45,072 nucleotides of DNA, taken from positions 18,602 to 63,673 of the forward strand of contig CAZSWP010000020.1 of NCBI GenBank assembly GCA_964610875.1, in the 5' to 3' direction. The translations under genes were made by a program, and so were the position numbers. This DNA comes from an uncultured archaeon. Lineage in GTDB: Archaea; Asgardarchaeota; Thorarchaeia; Thorarchaeales; Thorarchaeaceae. The notes beneath the pieces were generated by a model. That model worked only from the letters and a program-made list of their open reading frames with translations. It was not told the origin of the DNA and ran no database searches. Shown here piece by piece: positions 10,782-29,830 of the stretch. How positions within the stretch are numbered: the first letter of the stretch is position 1; every line of letters starts with the position of its first letter.

Positions 10782-12289
10782 TATGGAATGCCTCCTGCAA
10801 TGAGTTCTGCAACAGGTGCAACAAGTATCAAGATTAAGTCAGGCCAGATACCAAGGATAAGTACAGGAATCATCATCAGAATAGGTGCAACGAGGTCACT
10901 CCAAGGTGCCTCATGAAGTTCCTTTTCGGGATCTGGGTCAGAAAACACAATGCGATTTAGTGTCCATAGAAGATAACCAACAGTAATGAATATTCCAAAG
11001 ACAATGAAGGCAGTCCAGATGTAAACAATAACAGAACCAAAGAGAACTAGTACTTCAGCGATGAAGCCACTGAATCCAGGTAGTCCAAACGCAGCAAAAG
11101 ATGCCAAGATGAGTAATGCTGACATCTTTGGTGCTTTACTCATAAGACCAGTCACTTCTGGAATCTCTCGTGTACCTGCTGCATATTTCATCTGTCCAGC
11201 CATGATAAACATCACAGATATGATGGTTCCATGAGACACCATCATGAAGACCGCACCTTGAATTGCTAATTCTGTACCAACAGCAACTCCAAGCAATACC
11301 CATGCCATGTGATTGATTGATGTGTAAGCAACCATACTCTTCAAGTCAGTCTGAGCCATTGCAGTAAAAGCAGCATAGATACAGGTGAAGATGGCAAGAG
11401 CTGCGAATGGAATACTAAGCCGTGCAAATGCATCAGGGACCATCCAGAGACCTAAACGAACGAAAGCATATCCACCCATTTTTAGTAAGATTCCAGCAAG
11501 TATCACAGACCCAGGTGTCGGTGCTTTTACGTGCGCATATGGAAGCCAGTTGTGCATTGGCCATACAGGCAGTTTCACACCAGCTCCTGCAAATACTGAA
11601 AGAGCAAATCCAATCTGAACCATTGGTGCAAGACCAATAGAACGAAGTGCAATCATATTGAATGTGTTAGGTTCGGCAATGAAGTAGAGTGCAAAGAATC
11701 CGACCATCATGATAGCTGAACCGAGATGCGTGTAAATGAAGAACTTAACAGCAGCGTGTTGACAACCCTCTTCGCCCCATTGTCCGATTACAAAGAACAT
11801 AGGAATCAGTACTAACTCCCAGAAGATGAAGAAGGCAAATAGGTCAAGTGACATGAAGACTCCAAGTAAGCCAGATTGTAGAATCATTAAGAGACCGTAG
11901 TAGAAACCTTCAGACTTTTTGATATGGTTCGAACTAATGACCGCGATGAACATCACCAAGTTGGAGAGGAAAATCATCGCTACTGAGATTCCATCGACGC
12001 CAAGCATAATCGAGGTCTCTGTTACGAATATTCTACCCAATGATAACTCCCATATGAACTGCATACCGAGATAGGGATCTGCAGAATCAATTGGTGAAGT
12101 ATCGAGAGCTAGTGCAAGCACAATAGCCAATCCTAGCTCGATTGCGGTTATTAGAAGAACAAGTACTCTTGCAGCTTTTCCGCGAAGCAATATTGCCAGT
12201 GCACCAGCGATTATCGGAAGGATTAACATGAAGGGCAGGATATCCATTGGAAGGAGCCCGAGAATTGTCTGTACTATGGCAAACTGCAT
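10781..12289 (-). CDS. nuoM: Complex I-like subunit M
   Basis: GVDGIS, FWELVLIPMF, AVKFFIYT, VKLPVWPMHNWLPYAHVKAPTPGSVILAGILLKMGGY, MVSHG, LPGFSGFIAE. Confidence 0.93.
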   Translation of the reverse strand: MQFAIVQTILGLLPMDILPFMLILPIIAGALAILLRGKAARVLVLLITAIELGLAIVLALALDTSPIDSADPYLGMQFIWELSLGRIFVTETSIMLGVDGISVAMIFLSNLVMFIAVISSNHIKKSEGFYYGLLMILQSGLLGVFMSLDLFAFFIFWELVLIPMFFVIGQWGEEGCQHAAVKFFIYTHLGSAIMMVGFFALYFIAEPNTFNMIALRSIGLAPMVQIGFALSVFAGAGVKLPVWPMHNWLPYAHVKAPTPGSVILAGILLKMGGYAFVRLGLWMVPDAFARLSIPFAALAIFTCIYAAFTAMAQTDLKSMVAYTSINHMAWVLLGVAVGTELAIQGAVFMMVSHGTIISVMFIMAGQMKYAAGTREIPEVTGLMSKAPKMSALLILASFAAFGLPGFSGFIAEVLVLFGSVIVYIWTAFIVFGIFITVGYLLWTLNRIVFSDPDPEKELHEAPWSDLVAPILMMIPVLILGIWPDLILILVAPVAELIAGGIP

Positions 12290-12290
12290 T

Positions 12291-14504: not shown

Positions 14505-14515
14505 CGTTCTTCACC

Positions 14516-16030
14516 TCACCCCAGAATCCCGGAAACAGCTTCTACTGCTGGCTGAATTATGTCCAGAGCCAGACCTGGGAATATTCCAAATAGCACAATA
14601 AGCACACCAAGAATAATCATAGGTATAGTCATAGAGCGAGGTGCTTCCACAATGTTCTCCAACTCTTCAGGATGGGGTCCGAGGAACACGCGCCACAGAA
14701 ATCTAAGCATATATCCGGCACTCACGATTGAGCTTGAAACTGCAAGTATTGTCAATATCAAAAATTCAGGTCTTGCAAGTATACCTCCAGAGAGAATAAC
14801 AGCCTGAAAACCTCCATAGAACATCATCCACTCACTTGCGAAACCGGACAATGGTGGACTCCCTGCAATACTCAAAGCACCAATAGCCGCAGCGAATGCT
14901 GTGATGGGCATTTTATTCGAGAGACCTCCCAATTTAGAAACGTCTCGTAATTTCGTCCGGTGGATGACCGCTCCTGCAGTCATAAACAAGAGACCCTTTG
15001 AGAATGCATGATTAATGAGATGGAAGAGACCTCCAGCAATACCAAATGTTGTGTACATTCCTAGTGCAAAAAGCACGTAGCCCATCTGTGATACCGAAGA
15101 ATAAGCAAGAAGCCGCTTGATATCCATCTGAGCAAGTGCCATGAAGCCACCGTAGAACATAGTCAGTACACCGATCACACCAACCCAGAATGAAAGGGCT
15201 GCTGCGGCAGGACCTAGAGTAATCATACCGAATCTAACAAGGGCATACGCACCAGTTTCAATCATTGCACCTGAAAGCAGAACAGAGATAGGTGTTGGTG
15301 CCTCAGCGTGGACTGGAGGAAGCCACCAGTGAATCGGAAAAACAGCCATCTTCACTAGAAATCCAGCAGCCAATAGAACGAAGATTAGTTTGAGCATTTC
15401 AATCTGACCTATGTAGGTGGGCAACATACTGGTGATGACCTGAAGCTCAAATGAACCAGTAAAGAAGTATAGTAACCCAAACCCGACAAGAATACAGACT
15501 GCACCAGACTGAGTGTAAAGCCAGAACTTCATAGCCGTTCTTTTCCTAGTTTCTGGAAGACCCCAGAATAGGATGAGAAAGTAGCTGGGAACAAGCATGA
15601 GCTCCCAAGCAATGAAGAACTCAAGTAAATTGGTTGCAAGAGTCACCCATTGCATTCCCATTAGAAAGAACAATTGATTCGCAAAGAAAGTTGGTTTGCT
15701 GTGCTCATGTTCTGTGTATCCTACAGCATAGACAACTGACAGAAAACCAAGAACTACCACTGCGAAAGTTATGGGAAAAGCAATGCCATCAAGAAATAGA
15801 CCGAACTCACCAAGGACTGTAGACCATGTCATAGATTCTAAAGCAACACCACCTTCTACCATCACCCTGTAAAAGGGAGGAAACATAAGAACCATGCTTA
15901 TTCCAGAGAAGAAAACTGCAATCTTACCAGAACTATTCTCTAAACGACCTTTCAATAGATAGATCAGAAGACCACCAATGAACAACACTACAAGCGAAAA
16001 TGTCATGAATGGTAGTTCGATCATCTGCAT
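14516..16030 (-). CDS. Additional (fourth) antiporter-like subunit, NuoM/MrpD/HyfB-like
   Basis: AWELMLVPSY, VKMAVFPIHWWLPPVHAEAPTPIS, KRLLAYSSVSQMGY, HLINHAFSKGLLF, GFASEW. Start most likely ATG 16030 (TAATG overlap with the nuoI stop, GGAGG SD upstream). Confidence 0.9.
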   Translation of the reverse strand: MQMIELPFMTFSLVVLFIGGLLIYLLKGRLENSSGKIAVFFSGISMVLMFPPFYRVMVEGGVALESMTWSTVLGEFGLFLDGIAFPITFAVVVLGFLSVVYAVGYTEHEHSKPTFFANQLFFLMGMQWVTLATNLLEFFIAWELMLVPSYFLILFWGLPETRKRTAMKFWLYTQSGAVCILVGFGLLYFFTGSFELQVITSMLPTYIGQIEMLKLIFVLLAAGFLVKMAVFPIHWWLPPVHAEAPTPISVLLSGAMIETGAYALVRFGMITLGPAAAALSFWVGVIGVLTMFYGGFMALAQMDIKRLLAYSSVSQMGYVLFALGMYTTFGIAGGLFHLINHAFSKGLLFMTAGAVIHRTKLRDVSKLGGLSNKMPITAFAAAIGALSIAGSPPLSGFASEWMMFYGGFQAVILSGGILARPEFLILTILAVSSSIVSAGYMLRFLWRVFLGPHPEELENIVEAPRSMTIPMIILGVLIVLFGIFPGLALDIIQPAVEAVSGILG

Positions 16031-16461
16031 TAACGGAACCTCCTCCCACGCCATTCAAGTGGCTCTCTTTCGAGATTTGTTATCTTATCAGGCCCATATA
16101 CTAAATCTTCTCGGTCCGCTTCACTCAAATCGACAATCGGAGTGTGGAACAAGGCGTCGAATCTACAAGCTTCTACGCAATGACCGCAGAAAATGCATCG
16201 AGTATAGTTGAAATACAGTGCTGCATCTCTCTCATATTTCTGATCATTTTTGTCAATTCTAATTGCTACTACGGGACATGCTCGAACACATTGACCACAA
16301 GCTGTGCAATTCTCACGAATATGTATATGCCGACCTCTTGTGCGCTCAGGATACTCTCTGTCTTCAAAGGGATAGAAGTACGTGAAAGGTCTCTTGAACA
16401 CTTGCCTGAATACATGTTTCAAGACAGTGAATATGTCGTCTAAAACGTCAAAGAATCCCAT
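16030..16461 (-). CDS. nuoI: Complex I-like subunit I (2x[4Fe-4S])
   Basis: TYFYPFE, RTRGRH, CTACGQCVRACP and CIFCGHCVEACR. Confidence 0.93.
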   Translation of the reverse strand: MGFFDVLDDIFTVLKHVFRQVFKRPFTYFYPFEDREYPERTRGRHIHIRENCTACGQCVRACPVVAIRIDKNDQKYERDAALYFNYTRCIFCGHCVEACRFDALFHTPIVDLSEADREDLVYGPDKITNLEREPLEWRGRRFR

Positions 16462-16465
16462 TTTG

Positions 16466-17617
16466 TTAACCTCCTGGAATCGCTATTATGGCAGCTAAGC
16501 CAGGTATGTATGCAATAACGAGCAACACGATGACTATGTTCAATATTGACAAGGGTAGTAGATACTTCCAGCAATAATGCACAATCTGATCCTGACGTAA
16601 TCTGTAGAATGATGATGATACTGTCACGAACACAAAGAATACAATCAAGAATTTGATGATGAAGTTCACCACTCCTGGAAGAAATGGTACGCCATAGAAT
16701 CCACCAAGGAAGAAGGTAACAATGAGTGCTGAGTATAGCATCTGTTCAGCAAACTCTGCAAAATACGTCAGAGTGAAATAAATGCCAGAAAACTCGGTTC
16801 GCCATCCAAAGATGATCTCAGAGTCTGCAACGGGTGCATCAAAGGGAAATATTCCAACAGAAGCGATTGAAGCCACTAAGAAAGTTGCAAAGTTGATTGG
16901 CAGCAAAACAATGAACCATAAAGAATGCTGAGCAAGAGCAATTCCCATTACACTTAGAGACCCTGCTAACAATGCTGGACCAACAGATGAAATAATCAGA
17001 GGTATCTCAGCTGCAAATTGATTGTTCGCTGCTCTGAAACCACCTATCAAAGTATATTTTGAACCACTTGTCCAACCTGCTAGTAAAGCAATAACTGGAA
17101 CCGCAGTAAGAAAGGCAAAGATGAGTACTAGGCTCACTGAAAGGTCAGCAATGAACCAATCGGTGTCCCATGGAATGAATGCAAATGGCAGCAGAACAAC
17201 TATGAGTAGTAAAGATGGAAGGAACCGATACATCCATCGTCGGGCATTCTTAGGAATAATTACTTCCTTGGCAACTAGTTTAATTGCATCCGCAAACAGT
17301 TGCAAACCACCATATTTACCCATATGAAAAGGTCCTCTTCTCAGCTGAATCCTTCCCCAGAGTTTTCTTGTGAACCAGACAGCATAGATTAATGTCATTA
17401 CTATGAAGACCAGTCCCGGGAAGATGATGGCTTTGAATAGAAATCCAATATTTGTTATGGCTAATCCCCAGACATAGAGGAATAGGTCCCAAATGTAAAG
17501 AAGCACAGCCTTTAGAATTCCCCAAATCCAGAGTATTACACCATACAACCAACTCGGGATTCCTGCTAACCAATCAATAATCCAATCAAACTGCAAAGCA
17601 ACACAACCCCCAATCAT
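16466..17617 (-). CDS. nuoH: Complex I-like subunit H
   Basis: RKLWGRIQLRRGP, GLQLFADAIKLVAKE, SKYTLIGGFRA, PFDAPVADSE, RLRQDQ. Start uncertain: ATG 17617 in an ATGA overlap with nuoD, or TTG 17596. Confidence 0.92.
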   Translation of the reverse strand: MIGGCVALQFDWIIDWLAGIPSWLYGVILWIWGILKAVLLYIWDLFLYVWGLAITNIGFLFKAIIFPGLVFIVMTLIYAVWFTRKLWGRIQLRRGPFHMGKYGGLQLFADAIKLVAKEVIIPKNARRWMYRFLPSLLLIVVLLPFAFIPWDTDWFIADLSVSLVLIFAFLTAVPVIALLAGWTSGSKYTLIGGFRAANNQFAAEIPLIISSVGPALLAGSLSVMGIALAQHSLWFIVLLPINFATFLVASIASVGIFPFDAPVADSEIIFGWRTEFSGIYFTLTYFAEFAEQMLYSALIVTFFLGGFYGVPFLPGVVNFIIKFLIVFFVFVTVSSSFYRLRQDQIVHYCWKYLLPLSILNIVIVLLVIAYIPGLAAIIAIPGG

Positions 17618-18750
17618 CTGTCCCACCATCCTACATAGGGGTCTAGACTTCCAAATATTGCAATGAAGTCTGCAAATCTAGAACCGGGTACTAAATGCTT
17701 CAAGGAATAATACGAATTTAAACAGGGACCACGTATCTTTGCTCTCCATGGAGTCTGTGCTTTCTCCTGAGTCTTTAGCCAAACTGAGGTTATTCCACGA
17801 GTGCCTTCGACTCGACCGTAAGCTTCACCTTCTGGAAGCCGATTTGCTTTTGCTCGAGCTTTTCTGTCAACTATCTCACCTTCAGGAACTTGTGGAAGAA
17901 GCTGTCTTATTATGCTTGCAGCAGTTTCGACTTCTTTGAAACGTTGAACCATCCTGTCATACGCGTCGCTTTCTCCAGGATGCTCAGGATTTTCAGTTAT
18001 AGGAACTTCCCAATCAGCTAGATCATAAGCCAAGTTAGGATCTGGCATATCTTTACGGAGGTCCATTGGGATTCCACAGGCCTTAACATTTGGACCAGAT
18101 AAGCCCCATCTTATCGCTTGTTTACCACTAAAGCGAGCAACACCATCAGTTCGTTCTCTAAATGTAGGACTACCCATAAGCATGTCCTTGAACTTTGGAA
18201 GTTGCTTCTCAAATCGATCGAGAGCTAACTCAAGTTTTTTGACTGATTTCTCAGTGAAATCAAATCGTACACCACCTGGCGTGTTATACGATACAGTATG
18301 TCGAGAACCAGTTAATTCCTCAAATGCATCAAGGAAGAACTCTCTGTCAACCCAAGGCCATAACAGCATTGTGAAGAATCCAAGTTCTGCGGAAAATTGT
18401 CCCCACCAAAACTGCATACTATGTATCCTTGATGCCTCCATCATTATCGTACGCATAATTTTGGCTCGTTCAGGCACTTCAAGTCCAGCAATCTTCTCTA
18501 CTGCTGAAATGTATGGATATTCTGAAAGAAATGCCTCTAGCATGCAAAGTCGCTCAAGAATCATTGAACCCTGCCTGAAAGTTCTGAACTCAAGACACTT
18601 CTCAGCAGATCGATGGAAGTAGCCCGCTTGCGGATCACATTCCACAATGTAGTCCCCGACCAATGTCAGCTTTGCAGCCCAACCATGAGCTGAAACATGC
18701 TGCGGGCCGAACCAGATATCAATTGCTTCATCAAGAATATCAGGAGTCAT
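17614..18750 (-). CDS. nuoD: Complex I-like subunit D (no Ni-Fe ligands)
   Basis: FGPQHVSAHG, GYFHRSAEK, EASRIHS, TGSR, GLSGP, EGTRG, C-terminal SLDPYVGWWDR. No CxxC pairs. Confidence 0.93.
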   Translation of the reverse strand: MTPDILDEAIDIWFGPQHVSAHGWAAKLTLVGDYIVECDPQAGYFHRSAEKCLEFRTFRQGSMILERLCMLEAFLSEYPYISAVEKIAGLEVPERAKIMRTIMMEASRIHSMQFWWGQFSAELGFFTMLLWPWVDREFFLDAFEELTGSRHTVSYNTPGGVRFDFTEKSVKKLELALDRFEKQLPKFKDMLMGSPTFRERTDGVARFSGKQAIRWGLSGPNVKACGIPMDLRKDMPDPNLAYDLADWEVPITENPEHPGESDAYDRMVQRFKEVETAASIIRQLLPQVPEGEIVDRKARAKANRLPEGEAYGRVEGTRGITSVWLKTQEKAQTPWRAKIRGPCLNSYYSLKHLVPGSRFADFIAIFGSLDPYVGWWDR

Positions 18751-19283
18751 CAGTCATCACCTTCGTTCTTTCGGGTCGGTCTTGGTTTAGGTTGTGGAAG
18801 CCCAGATTCTTCCAATCTGCTTCTGTCAGTTTGAAAGCTCTTTCTGAGAGGATACTTACCCTCTAATTCTTCAGGAAGTAAGAGTAATCGTAAGTCGGGA
18901 TGATCTTCGAACAGAATGCCAAACATCTCATGGGTCTCTCGCTCATGCCATTCAAGACCAGGAAAAATATCAGAAATCGTAGGCACGGTCAAATCAGACT
19001 CGTCAAGATTTATTCGAAGTTGAATTAGCAATCCATCTAAGCGAGAATAGAAGATGTAAATGACATCGAATTTACCATCGCCAAGGTCAACACCAAATAC
19101 TAACTCTGGAAAGATTAGCTTGATTTCCTCATCGAGCAAGTTGACAATATCGCGAAGGTCAGCTCTATCAATGACTAGTTCAAATGCATTACCCTCGAGG
19201 GCTCTATAACTAGCAGAAGTGTATTTGTTAGTGAGTTTGCGACCAAGAGTAGCAGCATTTTGTTTCGATGTCCCTTCACTCAT
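18750..19283 (-). CDS. nuoC: Complex I-like subunit C
   Basis: VPTISDIFPGLEWHERETHEMFGILFEDHPDLRLLLL...YPLRK. Confidence 0.93.
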   Translation of the reverse strand: MSEGTSKQNAATLGRKLTNKYTSASYRALEGNAFELVIDRADLRDIVNLLDEEIKLIFPELVFGVDLGDGKFDVIYIFYSRLDGLLIQLRINLDESDLTVPTISDIFPGLEWHERETHEMFGILFEDHPDLRLLLLPEELEGKYPLRKSFQTDRSRLEESGLPQPKPRPTRKNEGDD

Positions 19284-19596
19284 TAATTACTAACTCCTTT
19301 TGTATGGGATGGCCGAAGTCAACAGTTCCATATCGTTTATTGTACATCAACATTAGAACCAATGCTAATGCAGTATGTGCAGCTGAAACAGATATGATTA
19401 GGATTATCAGCCCCTGTCCTGTGAACGAAAAGACATTGTTATATAGTGCAAACGCAACAAGTGCAATATTCGCACCATTTGCCATTATCTCAGCAGAGAT
19501 GAGGATGCGAATGAGATTTCTTTTGACCATCATTCCATATGCACCCATTCCAACTAGAATGAAAGCAACAACGAGATACCAAGATAATGGAATCAT
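19276..19596 (-). CDS. nuoK: Complex I-like subunit K
   Basis: Three TM helices, KRNLIRILISAEIMANG, GQGL, VSAAHTALAL. Confidence 0.9.
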   Translation of the reverse strand: MIPLSWYLVVAFILVGMGAYGMMVKRNLIRILISAEIMANGANIALVAFALYNNVFSFTGQGLIILIISVSAAHTALALVLMLMYNKRYGTVDFGHPIQKELVINE

Positions 19597-20240
19597 TGTT
19601 CATCACCCTCCAGTGTGGTAGCTTCGATCTCTACCACTACCTCATTATCATCAGAAGGGTCTGCTTCAATGCCAAACTCACCTTCAATTGATGCGAGCTC
19701 TTCTGCTTTTTCCATCTGAAGAATAGCAATGGACCCAACAATTGACGTGATGAGAATTATTGCAATAATCTGAACATAGATACCATGATCATCCCAGAGC
19801 CAGACGGCTAAATCATGTAAACTCTGAGATATGTCTGGAGAGCCAGCAGGAATAACTTCGGGCCAAGGAAATATAATAGCCAGCACTGCTGAGAGCCCAA
19901 TTACCACACCAGTTAATGCTAAACCGAGTATTCTCGCTCGCCGAGACGCAAATTCCTCGAGCGTTCTATCTTGGGCGCGAGGGAGAAGCAAAACAGCAAA
20001 GATAATGAGGGCACTGATGCCGCCCGTATAGACTGCGATTTGCATCCCCGCAATGAACGGGGCATCTAGAAGTAGAAAGAATCCAGATACAAAAGATGCC
20101 ATAAATCCAAAGAAGAAAGCTGCATATACGATGTCCTTATGCTCAAGTGCAAGATATGCTAAGAATATAACAATGCTTGCTATTAGGATGAATTCAAACT
20201 GCTCAAATAATTCGATTGCCGGATCTACCTCTTGAAGCAT
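19593..20240 (-). CDS. nuoJ: Complex I-like subunit J
   Basis: LLDAPFIAGMQIAVYTGGISALIIFAVLL. Start moved to ATG 20240 (GGTGAT SD just after the nuoA stop). Confidence 0.9.
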   Translation of the reverse strand: MLQEVDPAIELFEQFEFILIASIVIFLAYLALEHKDIVYAAFFFGFMASFVSGFFLLLDAPFIAGMQIAVYTGGISALIIFAVLLLPRAQDRTLEEFASRRARILGLALTGVVIGLSAVLAIIFPWPEVIPAGSPDISQSLHDLAVWLWDDHGIYVQIIAIILITSIVGSIAILQMEKAEELASIEGEFGIEADPSDDNEVVVEIEATTLEGDEQ

Positions 20241-20250
20241 GATTATCACC

Positions 20251-20685
20251 CTATTTACCGTGCTGCTCCTTTTCCCGTGCTGCTTTTGCTTCACGATATA
20301 GTTGTAGTGTTTCTTGTCCACTGAGAAATGCTTGCGGTAGCATCTTCATGGCATATCCAATACCACCCATAATAATCACGAGAAATATCAGTGTCTGCCA
20401 CACAACTATTGGTTCAAAACGGAGCTCTGAAGAGGCTAAGAGCCACAAGAAAGCACCCATGACATCAACAACAACAAACAAGATTGTGTACACGAAGTAG
20501 TTGTAGGGATATGACACACGGGCAGTCCCAATTGGTACCTCACCACATTCGTAGGTGGATGTCTTTTCTGAATTTTGCAAAACATGTGGTCGTAAAACCC
20601 ATGAAGCTAAGAGCATTATAATCACTAAAGCTATGGCCAATAATCCCCACACGATCACGGGTACGAAGTCTACGAAGAGCCTCAT
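20251..20685 (-). CDS. nuoA: Complex I-like subunit A
   Basis: Three TM helices, EKTSTYECGEVPIG, YFVYTILFVVVDV. Confidence 0.92.
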   Translation of the reverse strand: MRLFVDFVPVIVWGLLAIALVIIMLLASWVLRPHVLQNSEKTSTYECGEVPIGTARVSYPYNYFVYTILFVVVDVMGAFLWLLASSELRFEPIVVWQTLIFLVIIMGGIGYAMKMLPQAFLSGQETLQLYREAKAAREKEQHGK

Positions 20686-20966: not shown

Positions 20967-21323
20967 ATGTTTGATTTGAGATGGTATCAAAGGGGCACAT
21001 TCTTCTATTATCTTGGATTAATTGTGGGAGCCGCATTCTGTGGGGCCTTTTACGGTGTTATTCTTATGGCATCTCTACCACTTACGTTGTTCAACTATAT
21101 GATGCTTGGGTCTAGTGGAGTGGTTCTTCTTGGTTCTCTGTTATTTGCTCATCTTCATGGTAGAAAGCCACGCCTTTTCCTAACAATACTAACTGCAATA
21201 CCTGCTGGAGTCTTTGGATTTCTCAGCGTGAAATTATTTCCCGGACTTGGACTTGTCTATTTCGGATGGTTGATGTTTGGAATTCTAATCTTATCATCTG
21301 TGTATTCGTGGACAAATGAGTGA
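20967..21323 (+). CDS. Small 4-TM membrane protein
   Basis: 118 aa with four hydrophobic segments. Converges on the next gene with a 2-nt gap. Confidence 0.7.
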   Translation: MFDLRWYQRGTFFYYLGLIVGAAFCGAFYGVILMASLPLTLFNYMMLGSSGVVLLGSLLFAHLHGRKPRLFLTILTAIPAGVFGFLSVKLFPGLGLVYFGWLMFGILILSSVYSWTNE

Positions 21324-21325
21324 AC

Positions 21326-21805
21326 TCAATCTGTAGTTTCTGTAGAAGTAATTGGTTCACCTTCTTCTTCAACTAATTCTTCTTGACCTGGTGGATAATG
21401 AAGTTTTGAAGTATCAATTATTCCAGGACTTGTACTCTCTTCCACTGGTGGAAACATCATTATCGCTATTGCGATAAGAAATGCTGACCCTGCGCCCCAA
21501 GTAGTGATAAGTGTGCTTGAGTCTAGTGCCCAATCATGATATATGAAAACAACTATTGCATAGAGCAGAGTTAATACGCCAGAGATTGACATCATCAATG
21601 ATTTGATTTTCCCTGTATCGGGTTTCAGAAATCCAGTATATAGAATCAACAGTAGCAGTGGACCTCCAAGTACAGCTAGAAGTAATGTAATACTTCCAAT
21701 CGTACCTGTCATCCAAGTATAGAAGAAGCTGAAATAATAGGCACTGAGAAGCATTACACCCATCCAAATCATGCAATAGTGAGAACTGTCCTCGCGAAGT
21801 CTCAT
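21326..21805 (-). CDS. 4-TM membrane protein with acidic C-tail, translationally coupled to the FAD-NuoB fusion
   Basis: ATGA overlap with the fusion gene at 21802-21805, four hydrophobic segments, tail QEELVEEEGE. Confidence 0.75.
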   Translation of the reverse strand: MRLREDSSHYCMIWMGVMLLSAYYFSFFYTWMTGTIGSITLLLAVLGGPLLLLILYTGFLKPDTGKIKSLMMSISGVLTLLYAIVVFIYHDWALDSSTLITTWGAGSAFLIAIAIMMFPPVEESTSPGIIDTSKLHYPPGQEELVEEEGEPITSTETTD

Positions 21806-23742
21806 TTCATCATCCCCACTGAGTCTTGATTCTCATGCTTTTGTTGCCAGTGTGTAGTACCAGCACGAATCTTGTTTTGAAGTATAATATGCGCTCTCAC
21901 AAAGTCTGAAGGTTTGGGAGGACACCCTGGAATGTAAACATCAACAGGCACCACTTTATCAGGCGGTGTCATGAGTGAATATCCATCATAGAACATTCCT
22001 CCGCTAGCAGCGCATTGGCCAAAGGAGATAACAAACTTTGGTTCAGGTAGTTGCTCGTATATTCTTCGGAGGCGAGGCGTCATCTTCTTTGTGAGAGAGC
22101 CGGAGATCCATAGAACATCACATTGTCTCGGTCCAAATAGTGGCAACATTCCAAATCTCTCGATGTCCCATCTTGATGCAACAGCTGCTGCACCATCAGC
22201 CATACAACATCCAAGTCCGTATTGAACTGGCCATGGACTATGAGCACGACCCCATCGCAATAGCCATTTTACGGGTGGTAGATTCTGTACCCATTTCAGC
22301 AGAATAGGTGCAATGCGACCAAAGCCGTTTCTAAACAAATCATACCCAATCCACATGAAGTACTTACCAACCCGAATCATGAACGGCAGCCAGAATGCAA
22401 ACACCTTACCTGGGTTAGAGACCTCATTTGGGTCATACTTGAGCTTGGCAACTCGTATTTTTGCAAGCCGTTTCTTGCCAAAGTACTGAGAGGCATAGTT
22501 AGCGAACCAAATACCGGTTGAATGCACATGACCTCCGTGACGTTGAGCAATCTTAAAGATGACAAAACTTTGTGACCATGAGAGAAGATAGAATGGTCGG
22601 CGCTCATCTTCGAGGAAGTACCCCATCATCGTCGCACCACTCTTAGAAGTTATATAACCATCAATTCCAGCTTCAGCAGATGCCTGCTCAAATTGGAAAT
22701 CATCAAGTATTGCGTGGAGGTTCTCAAGGGGGGCAAATGCCTGACCCACAACTAATGTCGGACCTACTTTCTTAATCTTCATTGGATAGAATCTATCATG
22801 CCACTCATGATCTGCTACATGTTCATCATAAACAGTGCCTCTGAATTCATCAACTACCTCTCTGAATGTCTGTTCACCAGCTTCTACTTCTGCGGGAGAC
22901 CCTTCGTAAGCAACTAAGAGAACACAATGATAAACAGGATAGGGGAACGGTTCTTCCTCCTCCCAAGCTTGTTTCTTTAGATCTGTATACTTGCTCTCTT
23001 CAAACTTCATAGTATATGGAAGAGGTCCTCTCTCTAGCATATGCTCAATTGCCATTGTTAATTGGTAATTTTCTTCGAAGCTTGCTACAAGTGGACGAAT
23101 TTCAGTCGTCTTCTTAATCTTGATTTTTACCTCTGTAATGATACCGAGGATACCTTCGGTATCGCAGAAAAGATCGGTGTCTTTTGTTATGATGAGCTGA
23201 CCTGTTGGAAGTACTACCTGAAACTCAAGCACATTTTCGTTGACATTACCATATTTCAGGCTACCAATACCATCTCCACCTTGTGCCACCCATCCACCAA
23301 CTGAAGCTGAAATTCCAGAAGAAGGATAACATCGTAAATCTAACCCTTGACGATTCAATTCATGCTGAAGGTCCTGCCATGTTATTCCTGGCTCAACAGT
23401 AGCAGTGAGATTTTCTCCATCAATGTCAATGATATTATCCATTCTGCGCATGTCAACAATAATTCCGCCCTTTCGAGGGATTGCTCCACCATATCCGCTA
23501 GTGCCTGCAGCTCTTGGTACTAGAGGTATTTTCTCTTTGTTTGCAAATTTATAGAGTTTCATAATCTCTTCAGGATTAACTGGTTGGACAGCCGCATCAG
23601 GAGTGTTATTGATGAACCATCCTACCTGTTTTGGTAGAGATCCTACATCTGTCTTGAAGAGATGGAGTTCATGTTTAGCAGTGACCAGTCGGGCTCCAAA
23701 TATTTCTTCTAGAGCATCTAACTGCTTTTTTTTCAGACCCAT
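21802..23742 (-). CDS. nuoB: Fusion of FAD-binding (GlcD/Dld, VAO-type) oxidoreductase and complex I subunit B
   Basis: aa ~1-450: PDAAVQP, VPRAAGTSGYGG, TVEPG, ASVGGWVAQGGDGIGSLKYG, EGILGIITE, YDPNEVSNPGK. aa ~490-646: PWPVQYGLGCC, DIERFG, PRQCDVLWISG, YEQLPEPKFVISFGQCAASGG, VDVYIPGCPPKP. One uninterrupted ORF. Confidence 0.93.
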   Translation of the reverse strand: MGLKKKQLDALEEIFGARLVTAKHELHLFKTDVGSLPKQVGWFINNTPDAAVQPVNPEEIMKLYKFANKEKIPLVPRAAGTSGYGGAIPRKGGIIVDMRRMDNIIDIDGENLTATVEPGITWQDLQHELNRQGLDLRCYPSSGISASVGGWVAQGGDGIGSLKYGNVNENVLEFQVVLPTGQLIITKDTDLFCDTEGILGIITEVKIKIKKTTEIRPLVASFEENYQLTMAIEHMLERGPLPYTMKFEESKYTDLKKQAWEEEEPFPYPVYHCVLLVAYEGSPAEVEAGEQTFREVVDEFRGTVYDEHVADHEWHDRFYPMKIKKVGPTLVVGQAFAPLENLHAILDDFQFEQASAEAGIDGYITSKSGATMMGYFLEDERRPFYLLSWSQSFVIFKIAQRHGGHVHSTGIWFANYASQYFGKKRLAKIRVAKLKYDPNEVSNPGKVFAFWLPFMIRVGKYFMWIGYDLFRNGFGRIAPILLKWVQNLPPVKWLLRWGRAHSPWPVQYGLGCCMADGAAAVASRWDIERFGMLPLFGPRQCDVLWISGSLTKKMTPRLRRIYEQLPEPKFVISFGQCAASGGMFYDGYSLMTPPDKVVPVDVYIPGCPPKPSDFVRAHIILQNKIRAGTTHWQQKHENQDSVGMMK

Positions 23743-23948: not shown

Positions 23949-25178
23949 ATGCGGTTTCCTTCACTTGATGCCCGTGAACTCCAAGAAATGGCCTTTACCT
24001 GCGCACAATGTAGCTTTTGTCAGGTTGGAAATGGGGCGTGTCCAACATACAAAGTGAAACGGCTTGACAGCTATTCTGGGAAAGGTAAGATGCTTCTTGC
24101 TCGTGCGTTAATGCAAAACAGACTCAGTGAGAAAGAGGGATTAGAAGGTCTCAAGGATGCAGTCTTTGGATGCACACTCTGTGGAGGTTGTGAGGAAGTC
24201 TGTCAGGTTGATATTCCCTTTGTAAAAATCTATCAATTATTGCGACATGATTTCTTGAAACTTGGTATGTGGCCAGAAGGGCTTGTTCTAGCCAGAGATA
24301 CGCTACTGAAGTCAAACAACATTCAAGGTCAACCACAGATGGACAGATTGGAGGGATGGTCATATTGGGCACCAGATGAAGACATGATTCTTGATGCTGA
24401 AAGGAGAAAAGCAAAGACTGCATTCTTTGTTGGGTGTGCTTCATCGTTTAAAGGAGTTTCAATTCAATCAACTATAGCCATGGCTTTGATTATGAATAAG
24501 ATTGATGAAGGATTCACTATGCTTGGCGAAGAGGAATATTGCTGTGGAGCTCCAATGATAATGAGTGGAGATTTTGAAACAGCTAGGGCTCTTGCACTTC
24601 ATAATATCGAAGAGTATCAAAAGTTAGGCGTAGAACACGTTGTGACTAATTGTCCAGGTTGTTACAAGATGTGGGATCATGAATATCATGAGTTTCTTGA
24701 TATTGACCCACCATTTGAGATCCATTATGGTCCAGCATATTTTGCTGAATTATTGGATAATGGAAGATTCAATGGGCTTCTCACTAATCCATTAGATAAG
24801 ACAATAACATTTCATGATGGGTGTGACGCTGGACGCAATACCGGTTTCTTTGAAGAGCCAAGAAAGGTTCTAGAATATATTCCGGGCATCATTTTTGAAG
24901 AACTACCACACAACAAGAATAATTGCTACTGTTGTGGCTCAGGCGGCGTGTTACGGGCAATTGACAATGAATTTGCTGGTAATATCAGCGAACTGAAGGC
25001 TAAGGATATAGATGCCACTAACGCAGAAGTCGTATTATCAGGATGTCCCTCATGCGTCGAATACATGCACAGTCAATTACCAACAGCGGGAGTGAATGTA
25101 GTTTCAAAGGACATTATTGTGATGCTTGCTGAATCTATGGGATTCACGTGGGAAGGACTAGATGAGGTCTACGGCTGA
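23949..25178 (+). CDS. HdrD/GlcF-like Fe-S oxidoreductase (2x[4Fe-4S] plus two CCG domains)
   Basis: CAQCSFC...CP and CTLCGGCEEVC, then FVGC...YCCG...TNCPGC and HDGC...YCCGSGG...SGCPSC. Confidence 0.92.
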   Translation: MRFPSLDARELQEMAFTCAQCSFCQVGNGACPTYKVKRLDSYSGKGKMLLARALMQNRLSEKEGLEGLKDAVFGCTLCGGCEEVCQVDIPFVKIYQLLRHDFLKLGMWPEGLVLARDTLLKSNNIQGQPQMDRLEGWSYWAPDEDMILDAERRKAKTAFFVGCASSFKGVSIQSTIAMALIMNKIDEGFTMLGEEEYCCGAPMIMSGDFETARALALHNIEEYQKLGVEHVVTNCPGCYKMWDHEYHEFLDIDPPFEIHYGPAYFAELLDNGRFNGLLTNPLDKTITFHDGCDAGRNTGFFEEPRKVLEYIPGIIFEELPHNKNNCYCCGSGGVLRAIDNEFAGNISELKAKDIDATNAEVVLSGCPSCVEYMHSQLPTAGVNVVSKDIIVMLAESMGFTWEGLDEVYG

Positions 25179-26227
25179 GGTGGAGGTCGAAGAAGACCAC
25201 GTAGAAAGTATAAGACGATTCCAAACATCACTGCACCAATCACCGTTATGAAGAAGACATCTAAGTTAAGATTCGCAACAATGAATGCGAATGACATGAA
25301 TAGTCCTACTAGCAAATGGACCATCACAGTGGCAACATTGGCGGGGACAAGTCTTGGAATTTCATCATAATATTTCCATGCGGTACCAACACCAATCGCT
25401 GCCAAGGGGAGAGTGATGAAGGAATATAAGACCCAGATAGTTGTGTAACTGAATGCTATTGGTAATAGAATCGACAAATAGGTGCAAAGCATTAGAAATG
25501 CATAACCTCGAGATGCTCTTTTCTTTCCTAACCGGACAACAATGGTTCTCTTTCCCGCACCTCGATCAGCACGATAATCCGGAAATTCGTTAATATAGAG
25601 TATAGCACTGATTAATATTGCAATTGGAAGTGAATAAAGAATAGGTGTGATCTTTAACTCCATTGTTTGGACATAGTATGCTCCCAAGACCATTAGAACT
25701 CCAAAGTTGAGTCCGATGAAAACCTCCCCAATACCTCGCTTAACAAATCTGAAGGGAGGAGCGGTGTAGAAAAAGCCCGAACCTGCACCGATAACTCCAA
25801 GGACGATAATTATGATGCCTCTTTGATATGCCAAGTATAAACCAATCAAACCACCAATAGCAAAAAACACCATAGCTCCAATGAATACTTCACGAGGGGA
25901 TAAATAGCCAAGTTGTATGGTCCTACTGCCTCCTGTAAACGGTCGGATGAACTCCACATTGATATCATCAGTTCCTGTTTCATCCTCTGAATGGTCAAAG
26001 TAATCATTTGAAACGTTTGCTCCAAGATGAAGACAAACACCTGCAATGAGTGTTAGAATGAAATAGTCAAAGAAGAACACGCTTACTTCATACCAAGCAA
26101 CTGCTGTCCCCAGAATAACAGGAATGATACTTGCAGTAAGAAAAGGTGCTCTGAGTTCCATAATCCAAGCTTTCAACTTACTTGGTTTTTCCTCCACTCG
26201 GTTTTCTGAAAGCTTGTCTTCAGCCAA
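25169..26227 (-). CDS. menA: 1,4-dihydroxy-2-naphthoate polyprenyltransferase (MenA/UBIAD1 family)
   Basis: LRAPFLTAS, NDYFDH...DD...PFTGGSR, FYTAPP, GIGE, INEFPDYRADRGAGKRTIVVRLG. TTG start; 10-nt convergent overlap with the HdrD-like gene. Confidence 0.88.
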   Translation of the reverse strand: MAEDKLSENRVEEKPSKLKAWIMELRAPFLTASIIPVILGTAVAWYEVSVFFFDYFILTLIAGVCLHLGANVSNDYFDHSEDETGTDDINVEFIRPFTGGSRTIQLGYLSPREVFIGAMVFFAIGGLIGLYLAYQRGIIIIVLGVIGAGSGFFYTAPPFRFVKRGIGEVFIGLNFGVLMVLGAYYVQTMELKITPILYSLPIAILISAILYINEFPDYRADRGAGKRTIVVRLGKKRASRGYAFLMLCTYLSILLPIAFSYTTIWVLYSFITLPLAAIGVGTAWKYYDEIPRLVPANVATVMVHLLVGLFMSFAFIVANLNLDVFFITVIGAVMFGIVLYFLRGLLRPPPQP

Positions 26228-26384: not shown

Positions 26385-27443
26385 ATGCATGAAGAAGAGA
26401 TGACCAATGGCGGTCCATCTTCAAAGAGGATGGATATGAGAGAGAAGAGGACAATAGGCCATGCAAAAGTCATCGATGACCTAATGCAAATCGAAGATAT
26501 CAGAGTCCGGCTTGATTTGATTAATGAAAGAATCAATGATTTTGTTGATAGAACTATGGGTAGTCCCATTGAGCTTTATTCAACAGCATATCATCTAATC
26601 AAAGCAGGAGGTAAAAGACTTCGTTCGTTACTATTCGTTTTATCATCAGAAGCAGCTGGAGGAACCATTGAGAAGGCACTACCCTTTGCATTGGCAATTG
26701 AGTTGACACAAACAGCCAGTCTCATCCATGATGATATTATGGATGAGGATGAAGTCCGTCGAGGAACAGAAGTCACTCATAAAAAATTCGGAAAAAAAAT
26801 GGCACTCATTGCAGGCGACCTTCTAATTGCACAAGCAGTACATCTTGCTGGACAAAATGCATCCTCAAAGATGATTGAGATGCTAGCAGAAGAAGCCATC
26901 AGTATGTGTGAAGGGCAAGCTCAAGATTTGATGATAAAACTTGATTTAGTTGATTCAGTTAGAATTGATACATATATTGACATGATTGGAAAGAAAACAG
27001 CGGCATTCTTCAAAGCAGCTGGAAGAATGGGAGTAACACTTGCAGAAGCATCTTCAGAAATTGAAACAGCAATAGTCAACTATTGTGAGAATATAGGATA
27101 CGCATTCCAAATTCGTGATGACATTTTGAATATTGTTTCATCAGAAAAAACCACAGGGAAATCTTCCAAATCGGATATTATTGCAGGAAGATGTAATTAT
27201 GTACTATTATTGACAAGTGAGTCACTTAATGAAACTGATAGAAATGAATACTTGCAAGCAGTACAGCAAGCCAATATTCACGAGGCCCTTCAATTCGTGG
27301 AACAGACAGATGCAATACGCCAAGCGGGAAACATGGTTGAGGAATATGTTGATGCTGCAAAGAGAGCCCTCTCAGGACATTCCAGTATTCAAAAAGAGCT
27401 TCTTTTCATACTCGCAGATTTTATGCTAACTCGAATTCACTAA
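26385..27443 (+). CDS. Trans-polyprenyl diphosphate synthase, predicted medium/long-chain
   Basis: GGKRLR, first Asp-rich motif ASLIHDDIMDEDEVRRG, GQAQD, KKTA, second motif FQIRDDILN. Confidence 0.9.
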   Translation: MHEEEMTNGGPSSKRMDMREKRTIGHAKVIDDLMQIEDIRVRLDLINERINDFVDRTMGSPIELYSTAYHLIKAGGKRLRSLLFVLSSEAAGGTIEKALPFALAIELTQTASLIHDDIMDEDEVRRGTEVTHKKFGKKMALIAGDLLIAQAVHLAGQNASSKMIEMLAEEAISMCEGQAQDLMIKLDLVDSVRIDTYIDMIGKKTAAFFKAAGRMGVTLAEASSEIETAIVNYCENIGYAFQIRDDILNIVSSEKTTGKSSKSDIIAGRCNYVLLLTSESLNETDRNEYLQAVQQANIHEALQFVEQTDAIRQAGNMVEEYVDAAKRALSGHSSIQKELLFILADFMLTRIH

Positions 27444-28546
27444 TTCTCCTCGGTTTGAAATAAACTGTCTATGTTTGATAAAACACGCTCGAGCATCAAA
27501 GCCTGAGACTTCAACGTATTCCCATGTTTTCTGACATTGACCCAAATCTCAGTCAGCTCCTTAGCGCCTACTTTCACTGCACTTTCAGGCAATTGTGTGA
27601 CCCAGAAAATACCCTGTGGAAATTCTAGTATTCTGTCAACCAGTAGACGGATGTTGTCCTCATAGATGTCAATCACTTTCGCCATTGATTGAAGATTAGA
27701 TTTTGTAAGTTGAATGAATTTCTTAATCAAGGGATGGTTTCTAAGATCAGGGCGTAGTACCCAAGAGCTCTTTATCAAAGGAGGTCCTGAACGATCCAAC
27801 AAAGATTTTGGATAACCACTTGCTCCTATGATGATTTCAAAATGGGATTGCGATTCTTCATTCAATGCACTTGACATTTCAATAACTGATTCGATATATT
27901 CTGTTAGAGTATCTCCCTTCTCCTTTTTCCATTCCTTCTCAGAAATATCGTTGTGTCTTTTGGCAGTGATATCAATACCCATTGACTTCATCTTATCCAA
28001 GGCATGTTCACATTTCTCAACAGCTTCGTCTAATCGCTTTGGAGTCTGGAGTTCCTCAAGTTTTGAAATGTCAATATACTGCATGTCAATCCGCTCATGA
28101 ACTCTGCTTACCAACTCCCATTCTACAGTATCAAGGACTTCTTCGAAATTCCCGTTATCGCCGAATTTTTTGATATCGCTCCTTATCGAGCCAGACTCTT
28201 CAGGAGCAGTGAGCGTGAAGATTCGATTCATCATATTTGTAATCATAACACGATGCGCTTTCCCTCTACGTACAATGATATTTTGTTCCTCCAGATTTGA
28301 CAAAATATCAAACATATCAGAACCCCGAAGAAGGATTGGTTCCATAGAAATTTCGTTCTCGAAATAAGCTGGAAGGTTCTCACCTTTTATATAATCCTCA
28401 GTGAGTTTTCCTGTCAAAAGTACATAGAGACACAGCTCGCTAAGTTTCTTCACCGCTTCAACTGCAGCAGCGCTAGAATAACCGCCTTCAAGTAAAATCT
28501 TACGCGCGGAGTCTGGAGTGGATATGAAATCTTCTGCATAACTCAT
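27440..28546 (-). CDS. Soluble helical hypothetical protein
   Basis: Long ORF, start likely MSYAEDF (28546). No motif recognised. Confidence 0.7.
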   Translation of the reverse strand: MSYAEDFISTPDSARKILLEGGYSSAAAVEAVKKLSELCLYVLLTGKLTEDYIKGENLPAYFENEISMEPILLRGSDMFDILSNLEEQNIIVRRGKAHRVMITNMMNRIFTLTAPEESGSIRSDIKKFGDNGNFEEVLDTVEWELVSRVHERIDMQYIDISKLEELQTPKRLDEAVEKCEHALDKMKSMGIDITAKRHNDISEKEWKKEKGDTLTEYIESVIEMSSALNEESQSHFEIIIGASGYPKSLLDRSGPPLIKSSWVLRPDLRNHPLIKKFIQLTKSNLQSMAKVIDIYEDNIRLLVDRILEFPQGIFWVTQLPESAVKVGAKELTEIWVNVRKHGNTLKSQALMLERVLSNIDSLFQTEEN

Positions 28547-28633
28547 GAGTTTACATCCTTGCAGGTTCAAATGTAATATGTAGAAAAACATGAAAATCGA
28601 CTATATAGCAGTAGTTTGTATTACTATCATAAG

Positions 28634-29830
28634 TCAAGGTAGGTACTGTGCGGCAAAACTGGCAATTGGAGTAAGAGGAGAGAGAACTACGGGAAGACGA
28701 CACCTAACAACTGATTCTAAACCATGAGTTCCTGTGATGCTCATTGCGATGGATGTTAGAGTATCTGAACTCATGACAATATCTGCTACTCGAAGAATCA
28801 TGAGTGCTGTATATAGTTCTGTACCAATCTCAGTCTTCCATTGTTCTTCATACTTTGATAGAGGAACGTCATATTCAATGTGGTCAGAAACACACTGCCC
28901 GGCAATCTCTCCAGCAACTAAAGCAGTGGGGATGCCACCACCGTTTGAGGCCATAACATGTCCAGCTGCATCACCAGCAAGGATTGCATTTGAAGTGTAT
29001 GTTCTGTCTAAAGGGCCTCCCACAGGGATGAGCGCAGAAACTCTGGATTCAATCTTCATATTAGCAACGTGAGGTTTGACTTGTGGATGGTTAAGAAGCA
29101 TAGCAAGATGATTGCGTAGTGATACCCCCTCAAGAGAATGCGATCTTCTCAAACCCAATCCAATATTTACCATTCCATTACCTTTTGGAATCACCCAAGC
29201 ATACCCGCCAGGTGCTGCTTGACTACCAAAGAACATGAGAACTTCATCATTACTAAAACTCGTATCACTCAGAATGTATTGCATTGCAAAGCTCATGTCA
29301 CGTGTCCGATTCCTATAAGAAAGACCAAGACTCTTGGCTACTATTGAACTGGGACCATCAGCACCAATAATTGCCTTTGCTGTTATTCGGTGTTGTTTCG
29401 CAATATTATTTACTACCAACGAGTGAGGTCCTGAGAAGCCGAGAAATCTAGTTTTTGTACGCAATTCTGCCCCAGCTTGAATTGCTTTTTCCGTAAGCGA
29501 TTTGTCAAATGATTCCCGGTCTATTACATTCATAGCAAAAGGGAAACTGTATCTTTTTCCATTTGGAGCTATAGTAGAAATCACGTTGCTGCGATTTGTA
29601 ATGAAAGCTGATTCTACACGCACAAGCCGTGGTGCACGTTTAGAAGAAGGAAATAATCTAATTATCTCACGAGGAGTAGGTAGCAGCTCACCACATTGTA
29701 TAGGAAGACCAATCTCCTGTCGACGGTCTATCAGAAGAGTACGATATCCATTGGTTGCCAGAACAAACGCTGCAGTACTTCCCGCAGGTCCTGCACCAAT
29801 AACAGCAACATCATAATCGTATTCAACCAT
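28634..29830 (-). CDS. Geranylgeranyl reductase-family FAD oxidoreductase
   Basis: VIGAGPAGS, QCGE, DRESFD, IGADG, GGYAWVIP, AGDAAG, NGGGI. Confidence 0.9.
   Translation of the reverse strand: MVEYDYDVAVIGAGPAGSTAAFVLATNGYRTLLIDRRQEIGLPIQCGELLPTPREIIRLFPSSKRAPRLVRVESAFITNRSNVISTIAPNGKRYSFPFAMNVIDRESFDKSLTEKAIQAGAELRTKTRFLGFSGPHSLVVNNIAKQHRITAKAIIGADGPSSIVAKSLGLSYRNRTRDMSFAMQYILSDTSFSNDEVLMFFGSQAAPGGYAWVIPKGNGMVNIGLGLRRSHSLEGVSLRNHLAMLLNHPQVKPHVANMKIESRVSALIPVGGPLDRTYTSNAILAGDAAGHVMASNGGGIPTALVAGEIAGQCVSDHIEYDVPLSKYEEQWKTEIGTELYTALMILRVADIVMSSDTLTSIAMSITGTHGLESVVRCRLPVVLSPLTPIASFAAQYLP

Follow-up and report, generated by a model that had tools for sequence, protein, structure and literature searches.

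This analysis concerns a gene on a contig from an uncultured archaeon of the Asgard class Thorarchaeia (GenBank assembly GCA_964610875.1, contig CAZSWP010000020.1, positions 18,602 to 63,673), in which a complex I subunit is fused to a flavoprotein. The 45,072 nucleotides analyzed are referred to as the window, and coordinates without a contig label are positions in it. On the reverse strand, positions 21802–23742 (stop codon included) hold a single open reading frame (ORF) of 646 amino acids, in which a flavin adenine dinucleotide (FAD) flavoprotein (residues 1–447, 22402–23742), a linker (residues 448–490, 22273–22401), and a complex-I-type NuoB (residues 491–646, 21805–22272) follow one another in frame. 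The flavoprotein half has a fold like that of the D-lactate dehydrogenase LDHD and comprises the Pfam domains FAD_binding_4 (residues 48–185, 2.9e-40) and FAD-oxidase_C (residues 218–447, 1.4e-08, 35.2 bits versus a cutoff of 21.2), the linker contains two predicted amphipathic helices (451–472 and 474–486), and the NuoB half matches Oxidored_q6 (PF01058; residues 512–617, 1.1e-23, 83.8 bits versus a cutoff of 27). An earlier note on this DNA had given the coordinates, motifs, and linker of this ORF, all of which were found correct by ORF inspection, Pfam searches, and alignment to solved chains; the motif YDPNEVSNPGK begins at residue 436. It had likewise described an intact NuoB with all four cysteines of cluster N2, and indeed Cys512/513 (GLGCC, codons 22204–22209), Cys577 (GQC, 22012–22014), and Cys607 (GCPP, 21922–21924) align with the known ligands, homology to NuoB starting at residue 491 (nucleotide 22272); a fifth cysteine of this half, Cys541, falls on no ligand position. 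The fusion is also, as stated there, the only nuoB of the locus, being the single Oxidored_q6 gene within the window. The sole complex-I-type NuoB of a nuo cluster that lacks NuoEFG is therefore made as the C-terminal third of a 646-residue protein, whose N-terminal two-thirds form an FAD flavoprotein folded like a D-2-hydroxyacid dehydrogenase.

The NuoB half scores above cutoff with two NCBIfam models of the NuoB subfamily (NF005012, 175.1 versus 116; TIGR01957, 169.5 versus 142.7) and matches the solved PSST, Nqo6, and NdhK chains with E values of about 1e-42, as compared to only 1e-29 to 1e-25 for the hydrogenase-type relatives MbsJ, MbhJ, and HycG. In the respective ligand position, a CxxC motif is typical of hydrogenases and a tandem Cys-Cys typical of complex I. 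The fusion carries the tandem pair, whereas the hydrogenase small subunit of the same genome has GSCNGC instead.

The fusion is not a peculiarity of one assembly. A single open frame covering all of it was found in about 52 of the 87 species-level genomes of Thorarchaeia, that is, in 12 of 17 genera, with additional fragments at contig edges, and a word-indexed search retrieved about 45 protein clusters of 644–667 amino acids with the same three domains at 71–78 % identity. The named clusters among them are nearly all labeled Thorarchaeota (one Hodarchaeota), and some of the contigs reach 3.1 Mb. A closed 3.16-Mb chromosome of a relative (L035) shows the same fusion together with the same nuo layout. 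The domain architecture itself was searched with HMMER across 1.84 billion representative proteins, and exactly one cluster at 50 % identity has both halves. As for the junction in the window, a Logan contig crosses the linker (22098–22545) with no differences, which is weak evidence in view of its low depth and its probable origin from the source sample. The same caution applies to the DNA runs containing the stretch: there are two of them, both at low depth (3–5×), from one microbial-mat study, with short contigs, and probably representing the source sample, while no RNA runs containing it are listed. In one relative (G023, C5:93253–95189), the ortholog lies in two overlapping frames with the break near residue 433, in the cap domain of the flavoprotein and not in the linker, which reflects either a sequencing frameshift or a pseudogene. 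A joining of two separate genes by chimeric assembly or a sequencing frameshift, for which the low-coverage metagenome bin and the split gene of G023 might be invoked, is refuted for practical purposes and retains a negligible probability, given that independent studies yielded the same 644–667-residue frame in about 45 clusters and about 52 genomes, the closed chromosome among them, that the contig across the linker is undisturbed, and that the G023 break lies inside the flavoprotein, away from the junction.

The distribution of the fusion closely follows that of its cluster. Orthologs of the window's NuoD occur in 60 of the 87 genomes, all of them in the genera g1–g12, which are the fusion genera, but in none of the 16 genomes of g13–g17; fusion and orthologous NuoD hence occupy the same 12 genera and are both absent from the other five. 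No free NuoB of high identity was found in any of the 87 Thorarchaeia genomes, those without the fusion having only a distant complex-I-like cluster (NuoB 39–43 %, NuoD 33–36 % identity). The exclusive co-distribution, the lack of a free NuoB, and the lack of another nuoB in the cluster lend good support to the proposal of the earlier note that the flavoprotein is an obligate 1:1 part of the complex, barring a cleavage of the protein after translation.

Across 11 fused orthologs, amino acid identity amounts to 74 % for the FAD domain, 76 % for the cap, 84 % for the linker, and 91 % for NuoB; identity by region was used because synonymous sites are saturated in 40–53 of the 55 pairs, which makes the ratio of nonsynonymous to synonymous substitution rates (dN/dS) unreliable. 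All parts of the fusion, linker included, are under strong purifying selection, and the linker is more constrained than the flavoprotein domains. With a maximal hydrophobic moment of 0.57–0.58 (protein mean 0.22), it is strongly amphipathic but contains no transmembrane segment, and in the structural model it forms two helices leading into the first helix of NuoB.

The same segment exists in the absence of NuoB. The closest unfused relatives of the flavoprotein, orthologs of 498–499 amino acids in genus g14 (56–57 % identity), carry the entire linker as a C-terminal tail and end at ...PPLKW[I/L], precisely where NuoB homology starts in the fusion. They are encoded in a block of a geranylgeranyl-reductase-family gene, a prenyl synthase, a UbiA-family prenyltransferase, an HdrD-like protein, and the flavoprotein, without any nuo genes. 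Since these tailed, unfused orthologs occur in Thorarchaeia without this nuo cluster, the flavoprotein evidently works without NuoB. The nearest relatives of the nuo cluster are found on metagenome contigs (NuoD about 50 %, NuoB 60 % identity). Two of these, L034 and L036, come from outside Thorarchaeia and have a pair of nuoA and a free NuoB of 185 amino acids, followed by a B12-radical-SAM gene, whereas nuoJKCDHINLMN form an operon of their own, in which the genes follow one another in the same unusual order as in the Thorarchaeia. This hints at an origin of the nuo cluster outside the class. Judging from the free-standing relatives of the flavoprotein (g14) and of NuoB (L034, L036), both partners were once free and the fusion is derived, although the junction alignment fits g14 as a pre-fusion state just as well as a loss of the NuoB part in g14.

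The flavoprotein half can be assigned to a fold but hardly to a substrate. Its AlphaFold model (residues 1–445, predicted local distance difference test (pLDDT) about 90) resembles mouse mLDHD in Foldseek with a TM-score of 0.83–0.85 over the target, followed by LctD (0.79) and the alkyl-dihydroxyacetone-phosphate (DHAP) synthase AGPS (0.68). A family-profile search aligns LctD (4.7e-67) and LDHD (5.8e-66) over the full length; the profile was required, as a single-sequence search of the cap domain (residues 290–450) against the PDB returned nothing usable. Residues H398, H405, and E442 of mouse LDHD, which we take to be its His-His-Glu metal ligands, have no counterparts: the columns of H398 and H405 (the latter fixed by the deposited sequence of an H405A mutant) hold glycine in the fusion, and the glutamate of the LDHD motif t-g-E-H-G lies in an insertion absent from this flavoprotein family. 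The triad is missing across the whole archaeal family, free-standing members included. Scores for the GlcD equivalogs are far below cutoff as well (TIGR00387, 144.2 versus 567.9 bits; NF008408, 101 versus 897), so that "D-lactate dehydrogenase" would be an over-call. Domains of the FpoF/FrhB type were not detected either, only the three Pfam families named above being found at E ≤ 0.01 and no FpoF or FrhB match among the NCBIfam models. Relatives at 36–43 % identity are fused to a module of iron-sulfur (Fe-S) and CCG domains and form single chains of 860–1030 amino acids, and many flavoprotein paralogs of 573 amino acids have hydrophobic C-terminal extensions.

Such a module is also encoded next to the fusion, divergently on the forward strand (23949–25178), as an HdrD/GlcF-like protein with two four-cysteine ferredoxin motifs (Pfam Fer4_8) and two CCG domains. 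Its cluster cysteines are all invariant among 12 sequences, and its gene adjoins that of the flavoprotein in 9 of 12 loci. In predicted complexes, flavoprotein and HdrD-like protein reach an ipSAE interface score of 0.86, as compared to 0.01 for the best control; by a calibration that is only approximate because our own alignments were used, this mark is attained by 58 of 80 solved complexes and by 2 of 110 mismatched pairs. The runs share at least 94 % of their contacts, and the pLDDT of the partner is at least 90. Residues 13–88 of the HdrD-like protein, which include the invariant Cys18/21/24/31 and Cys75/78/81/85, rest on the FAD domain with the linker outside the interface. The model supports binding of the HdrD-like protein to the FAD domain, and if this predicted binding holds, the flavin has an exit route of its own that bypasses NuoB. 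Over its full length, the partner matches the thiol-dependent TfrB best among the NCBIfam models, followed by weaker matches to DsrK and HdrB (all scores far below cutoff), and the NCBIfam neighbors of the CCG protein include the quinone-linked LdhH and GlpC. On the closed chromosome, the 10 kb upstream of the fusion's HdrD-like partner (L035:1–9808) contain two more paralogous pairs of FAD_binding_4 and CCG proteins, along with PNPOx-like and amine-oxidase-like genes, which makes this locus a hot spot for flavoprotein/HdrD-like modules.

The nuo cluster that the fusion serves (9282–20685, reverse strand throughout) has neither nuoB nor nuoEFG and begins 1.1 kb downstream of the fusion. It comprises nuoA (20251–20685), nuoJ (19593–20321), nuoK (19276–19596), nuoC (18750–19283), nuoD (17614–18750), nuoH (16466–17629), and nuoI (16030–16461), followed by an extra antiporter-like subunit (14516–16054), nuoL (12291–14504), nuoM (10781–12289), and nuoN (9282–10781). 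The last four genes (9282–16054) encode four Proton_antipo_M proteins instead of three (512, 737, 502, and 499 amino acids), which, together with the unusual length of NuoL (737 amino acids), fits a membrane arm extended by one pump module. Its NuoD has lost the [NiFe] site, with one cysteine left and DPYVGWWDR at the C-terminus. It keeps the quinone-binding histidine (GPQHVSAHG); however, the quinone tyrosine is replaced by methionine or leucine and the neighboring aspartate by cysteine in 59 of 59 orthologs from Thorarchaeia, all of which read ER[LMI]C[ML] (ERLCML in the window) where canonical quinone-reducing NuoD has RxDY. The sister group at about 50 % NuoD identity has RLSM at this site. 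Among solved proteins, the closest one to show a similar motif is MbsL (6u8y), from the sulfane-sulfur reductase of Pyrococcus. The pump is thus itself unusual in its acceptor chemistry.

Six other Oxidored_q6 genes occur elsewhere in this genome. The best of these, encoding a NuoB-like protein of 173 amino acids, belongs to a nuoA-B-C set at a contig edge (C34:341–1770). This set is probably continued by nuoD-H-I on another contig (C54:1212–3921), beside pyruvate:ferredoxin oxidoreductase genes and with no antiporter-like genes adjoining on the stretch seen. The NuoD-like protein of the latter keeps all four [NiFe] cysteines (RICGIC, DPCFSC). Both parts probably represent a group-4 [NiFe] hydrogenase module with the C34 protein as its small subunit, and the C34 gene was rejected as a source of a second NuoB for the nuo cluster because its likely partner retains the full [NiFe] site. 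Directly after nuoN and on the same strand follows an FMN_red/WrbA-like flavoprotein gene (8546–9187); it was dropped as a candidate input module at the operon end, since none follows nuoN in the closed relative genome. Between fusion and nuoA lie two genes for small membrane proteins of about four transmembrane segments each. The first (21326–21805, reverse strand, 159 amino acids) overlaps with its start the stop codon of the fusion (ATGA), which amounts to translational coupling, and its position is kept in all 12 loci checked; it matches no Pfam or NCBIfam family, and its atlas neighbors all score below 0.9, none of them with a family. The second (20967–21323, forward strand, 118 amino acids) is present in 9 of 12 loci.

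On the other side of the HdrD-like gene, the window encodes functions of prenyl and quinone metabolism. A MenA-type 1,4-dihydroxy-2-naphthoate (DHNA) polyprenyltransferase (25169–26227, reverse strand; TIGR00751, 109.9 bits versus a cutoff of 102.15) was the sole match to a MenA model that the genome yielded. It is followed by a polyprenyl diphosphate synthase (26385–27443, forward strand), which is syntenic with MenA, the HdrD-like gene, and the flavoprotein and also occurs in the nuo-less g14 block, and by a geranylgeranyl-reductase-family flavoprotein of the same syntenic block with weak matches to MenJ and digeranylgeranylglycerophospholipid (DGGGPL) reductase (28634–29830, reverse strand). 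An ORF of 383 amino acids between the latter two (27440–28591, reverse strand) has no Pfam or NCBIfam match. Synteny of the flavoprotein with a UbiA-family prenyltransferase (MenA-type in the window) and a prenyl synthase is held in two genera, and a strong UbiE-like gene is present in the genome.

We consider it about an even bet (a probability of roughly 0.5) that flavoprotein and HdrD-like protein form a self-contained dehydrogenase at the membrane surface that is tethered 1:1 at the quinone entrance of the pump. Electrons would then pass from the substrate to FAD, on to two [4Fe-4S] clusters and the clusters of the CCG domains, and from there to a lipophilic acceptor; the most likely candidate is a prenylated naphthoquinone whose synthesis would involve the neighboring MenA. 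The amphipathic tail, which may once have held the free enzyme on the membrane, would now continue into the first helix of NuoB and moor the enzyme at the quinone-entry "heel" of a ferredoxin-type pump. Both enzymes could thereby share local quinone and quinol without being wired directly from FAD to N2, and the pump might run from ferredoxin to quinone or, driven by the membrane potential, from quinol to ferredoxin. The suggested placement draws on mitochondrial complex I, where the amphipathic helix α1 of the NuoB homologue NDUFS7 sits on the membrane at the opening of the coenzyme Q (CoQ) tunnel, belongs to the helices that deform the membrane there, and lies next to the dehydrogenase-fold subunit NDUFA9 (PMC8762328). 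As the linker joins this very helix, at the tunnel mouth in solved structures, the flavoprotein/HdrD-like enzyme would by analogy be held at the heel, away from the NuoI end, the docking place to be expected for ferredoxin or an input module.

Several observations weigh against this explanation. The quinone-ligating tyrosine is gone from NuoD in all 59 orthologs, and the acceptor site of the pump is consequently not a canonical quinone site. As the HdrD-like protein matches the thiol-dependent TfrB best, though under cutoff, electrons might leave to a disulfide instead of a quinone. MqnA was not found in this 95 %-complete genome, nor was a MenB above cutoff, so that what can be seen of a naphthoquinone pathway is limited to its prenylation and methylation end, and in the closed genome MenA does not lie beside the locus. 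Finally, with the LDHD metal triad absent, the substrate of the flavoprotein is not assignable.

The earlier note had assigned the flavoenzyme the role of electron input or output of the complex. Accordingly, the flavoprotein, with or without the HdrD-like protein, would be wired into the Fe-S chain from NuoI to NuoB and either replace NuoEFG or FpoF as input or drain N2. Such wiring would make sense of a complex that has neither NuoEFG nor FpoF and of the conserved covalent 1:1 stoichiometry, and with the quinone tyrosine of NuoD lost clade-wide, the electrons of N2 may well need another route. A functional link between a head-less Fpo-like complex and HdrD has reportedly been proposed for Methanomassiliicoccales. 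In these organisms, a complex of 11 subunits without an input module co-occurs with HdrD homologues but no HdrE (PMC4153887). This link is a proposal only and involves neither a flavoprotein nor a fusion, whereas the HdrD-like protein of the Thorarchaeia is predicted to sit on the fused flavoprotein and not on the pump. Other facts fit direct wiring poorly. The flavoprotein with the same tail occurs in relatives without this nuo cluster, and an Fe-S partner of its own is predicted to bind its FAD domain. Cluster N2 is buried at the interface of NuoB and NuoD in complex I structures. Moreover, the flavoprotein is attached at the N-terminal helix of NuoB, a helix that solved structures place at the membrane beside the Q-tunnel opening (PMC8762328), well away from where the chain is entered at NuoI, and, going by standard potentials, a couple of the 2-hydroxyacid type near −190 mV would be too weak a donor for a pump with four antiporter-like subunits. 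Direct wiring thus appears unlikely, and the corresponding claim is not supported by the analyses made.

The pair may also act as a thiol/disulfide-coupled enzyme, in which substrate electrons reduce a heterodisulfide-like cofactor at the CCG clusters without involvement of a quinone and the tether serves co-localization or regulation. Sun et al. (2021) reported complex I without a head, genes for menaquinone, and numerous Dld-HdrD pairs from related lineages of Asgard archaea; for these pairs in Sifarchaeia and Jordarchaeia, they proposed just such a heterodisulfide link (PMC9723677). The order of NCBIfam matches of the HdrD-like protein, TfrB before DsrK and HdrB, points in the same direction, but with scores all far under cutoff. 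A soluble thiol-linked enzyme would have no need for the conserved membrane-surface tail, the synteny with MenA and prenyl synthase in two genera would be left aside, and the fusion to NuoB would be given no reason. We therefore regard this mechanism as quite unlikely for the fused enzyme.

A mainly structural or assembly role of the flavoprotein domain in the heel, with little or no catalysis, is improbable. It would be compatible with the absence of the LDHD His-His-Glu site and has precedents among accessory proteins of complex I. L-galactono-1,4-lactone dehydrogenase (GLDH), a member of the VAO family, binds assembly intermediates of plant complex I, and the GLDH chain of a plant complex I entry (7a24_z) is among the sequence matches. 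NDUFA9, with its short-chain dehydrogenase/reductase (SDR) fold, occupies the same place beside NDUFS7 (PMC8762328). However, the triad is missing family-wide and in free-standing members, and is hence no fusion-linked loss. Although their synonymous sites are saturated, orthologs still show 76 % identity in the cap domain, the cluster cysteines of the Fe-S partner are invariant and its gene stays adjacent, and orthologs persist without nuo, all of which argues against a mainly structural role.

If the enzyme is indeed a self-contained dehydrogenase moored at the quinone entrance, a further step can be envisaged, albeit as a speculative and rather unlikely extension. The tethered enzyme and the remodeled Q-cavity of a five-site pump (with its four antiporter-like subunits) might swap one captive lipophilic carrier in a closed redox loop, which would constitute a reversible substrate:ferredoxin oxidoreductase coupled to the membrane potential. 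If true, in one direction an ion gradient would drive reverse electron transport and thereby allow a syntrophic Asgard archaeon to raise electrons from a substrate at the level of a 2-hydroxyacid to ferredoxin and H2, and in the other, ferredoxin-driven reduction of the oxidized substrate would pump ions.

Several known systems share individual features with this arrangement. Like NuoB, Nqo6, PSST (NDUFS7), and NdhK, the fusion has a complete complex-I-like domain with tandem-cysteine N2 ligands and is encoded with A, C, D, H, I, J, K, L, M, and N. It differs from them in an N-terminus bearing a flavoenzyme of 447 amino acids, in the displacement of nuoB from its usual place after nuoA, and in a NuoD partner without the quinone tyrosine. 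GlcD/GlcF, Dld-HdrD, and YdiJ-type single chains likewise combine a flavoprotein of the VAO/PCMH superfamily with a protein of two ferredoxin and two CCG motifs. In contrast to GlcD/GlcF and Dld-HdrD, the thorarchaeal flavoprotein scores below the GlcD cutoff, lacks the LDHD triad, has a membrane-surface tail, and is fused to NuoB. In Fpo and Fqo, FpoF or FqoF is a flavin module on an archaeal complex I homologue of 11 subunits without NuoEFG. FpoF is a separate, F420-dependent subunit with a presumed docking site at the top of the Fe-S chain, whereas the fusion has no detected F420-type domain, is covalently attached at the membrane-side N-terminus of NuoB, and has a separate predicted Fe-S partner. 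Lastly, NDUFA9, a 39-kDa accessory subunit, places a dehydrogenase fold on the membrane over the opening of the CoQ tunnel (PMC8762328), as would the thorarchaeal flavoprotein at its presumed position, yet its NADPH-binding Rossmann fold is unrelated, its attachment is non-covalent, and it is regarded as structural or regulatory.

To our knowledge, covalent fusions in complex I were previously known only among the core subunits B, C, and D. Documented fusions of NuoB (NuoBC, NuoBCD; also NuoCD) join the neighboring core subunits C and D (PMC11237513, PMC12361115). No published description of a NuoB-flavoprotein fusion was found in literature searches on NuoB fusions of Thorarchaeota and on complex I, NuoB, FAD, and HdrD, or in papers on archaeal fusions and complex I variants, and the accessible parts of the text and supplements of Sun et al. 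(2021) make no mention of a NuoB fusion (PMC9723677). The NuoB-flavoprotein fusion is thus conserved and apparently undescribed. In the NCBI annotation, these proteins are just called NuoB, so that metabolic reconstructions register an ordinary subunit of complex I and overlook a dehydrogenase.

Relatives of complex I are thought to gain functions by swapping separate modules. In one large clade of the Thorarchaeia, a substrate-level flavoenzyme is instead permanently fused with NuoB, the subunit holding the final cluster ahead of the acceptor site. The pump, too, is unusual in itself, as it lacks an input head, has one more antiporter-like subunit, and contains a NuoD in which the quinone tyrosine is missing. 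The energy metabolism of Asgard archaea bears on models of eukaryote origin. If the tether provides local channeling of quinones or a unit for reverse electron transport, it would represent a new design principle for respiratory complexes and offer a testable handle on energy conservation in these uncultured anaerobes.

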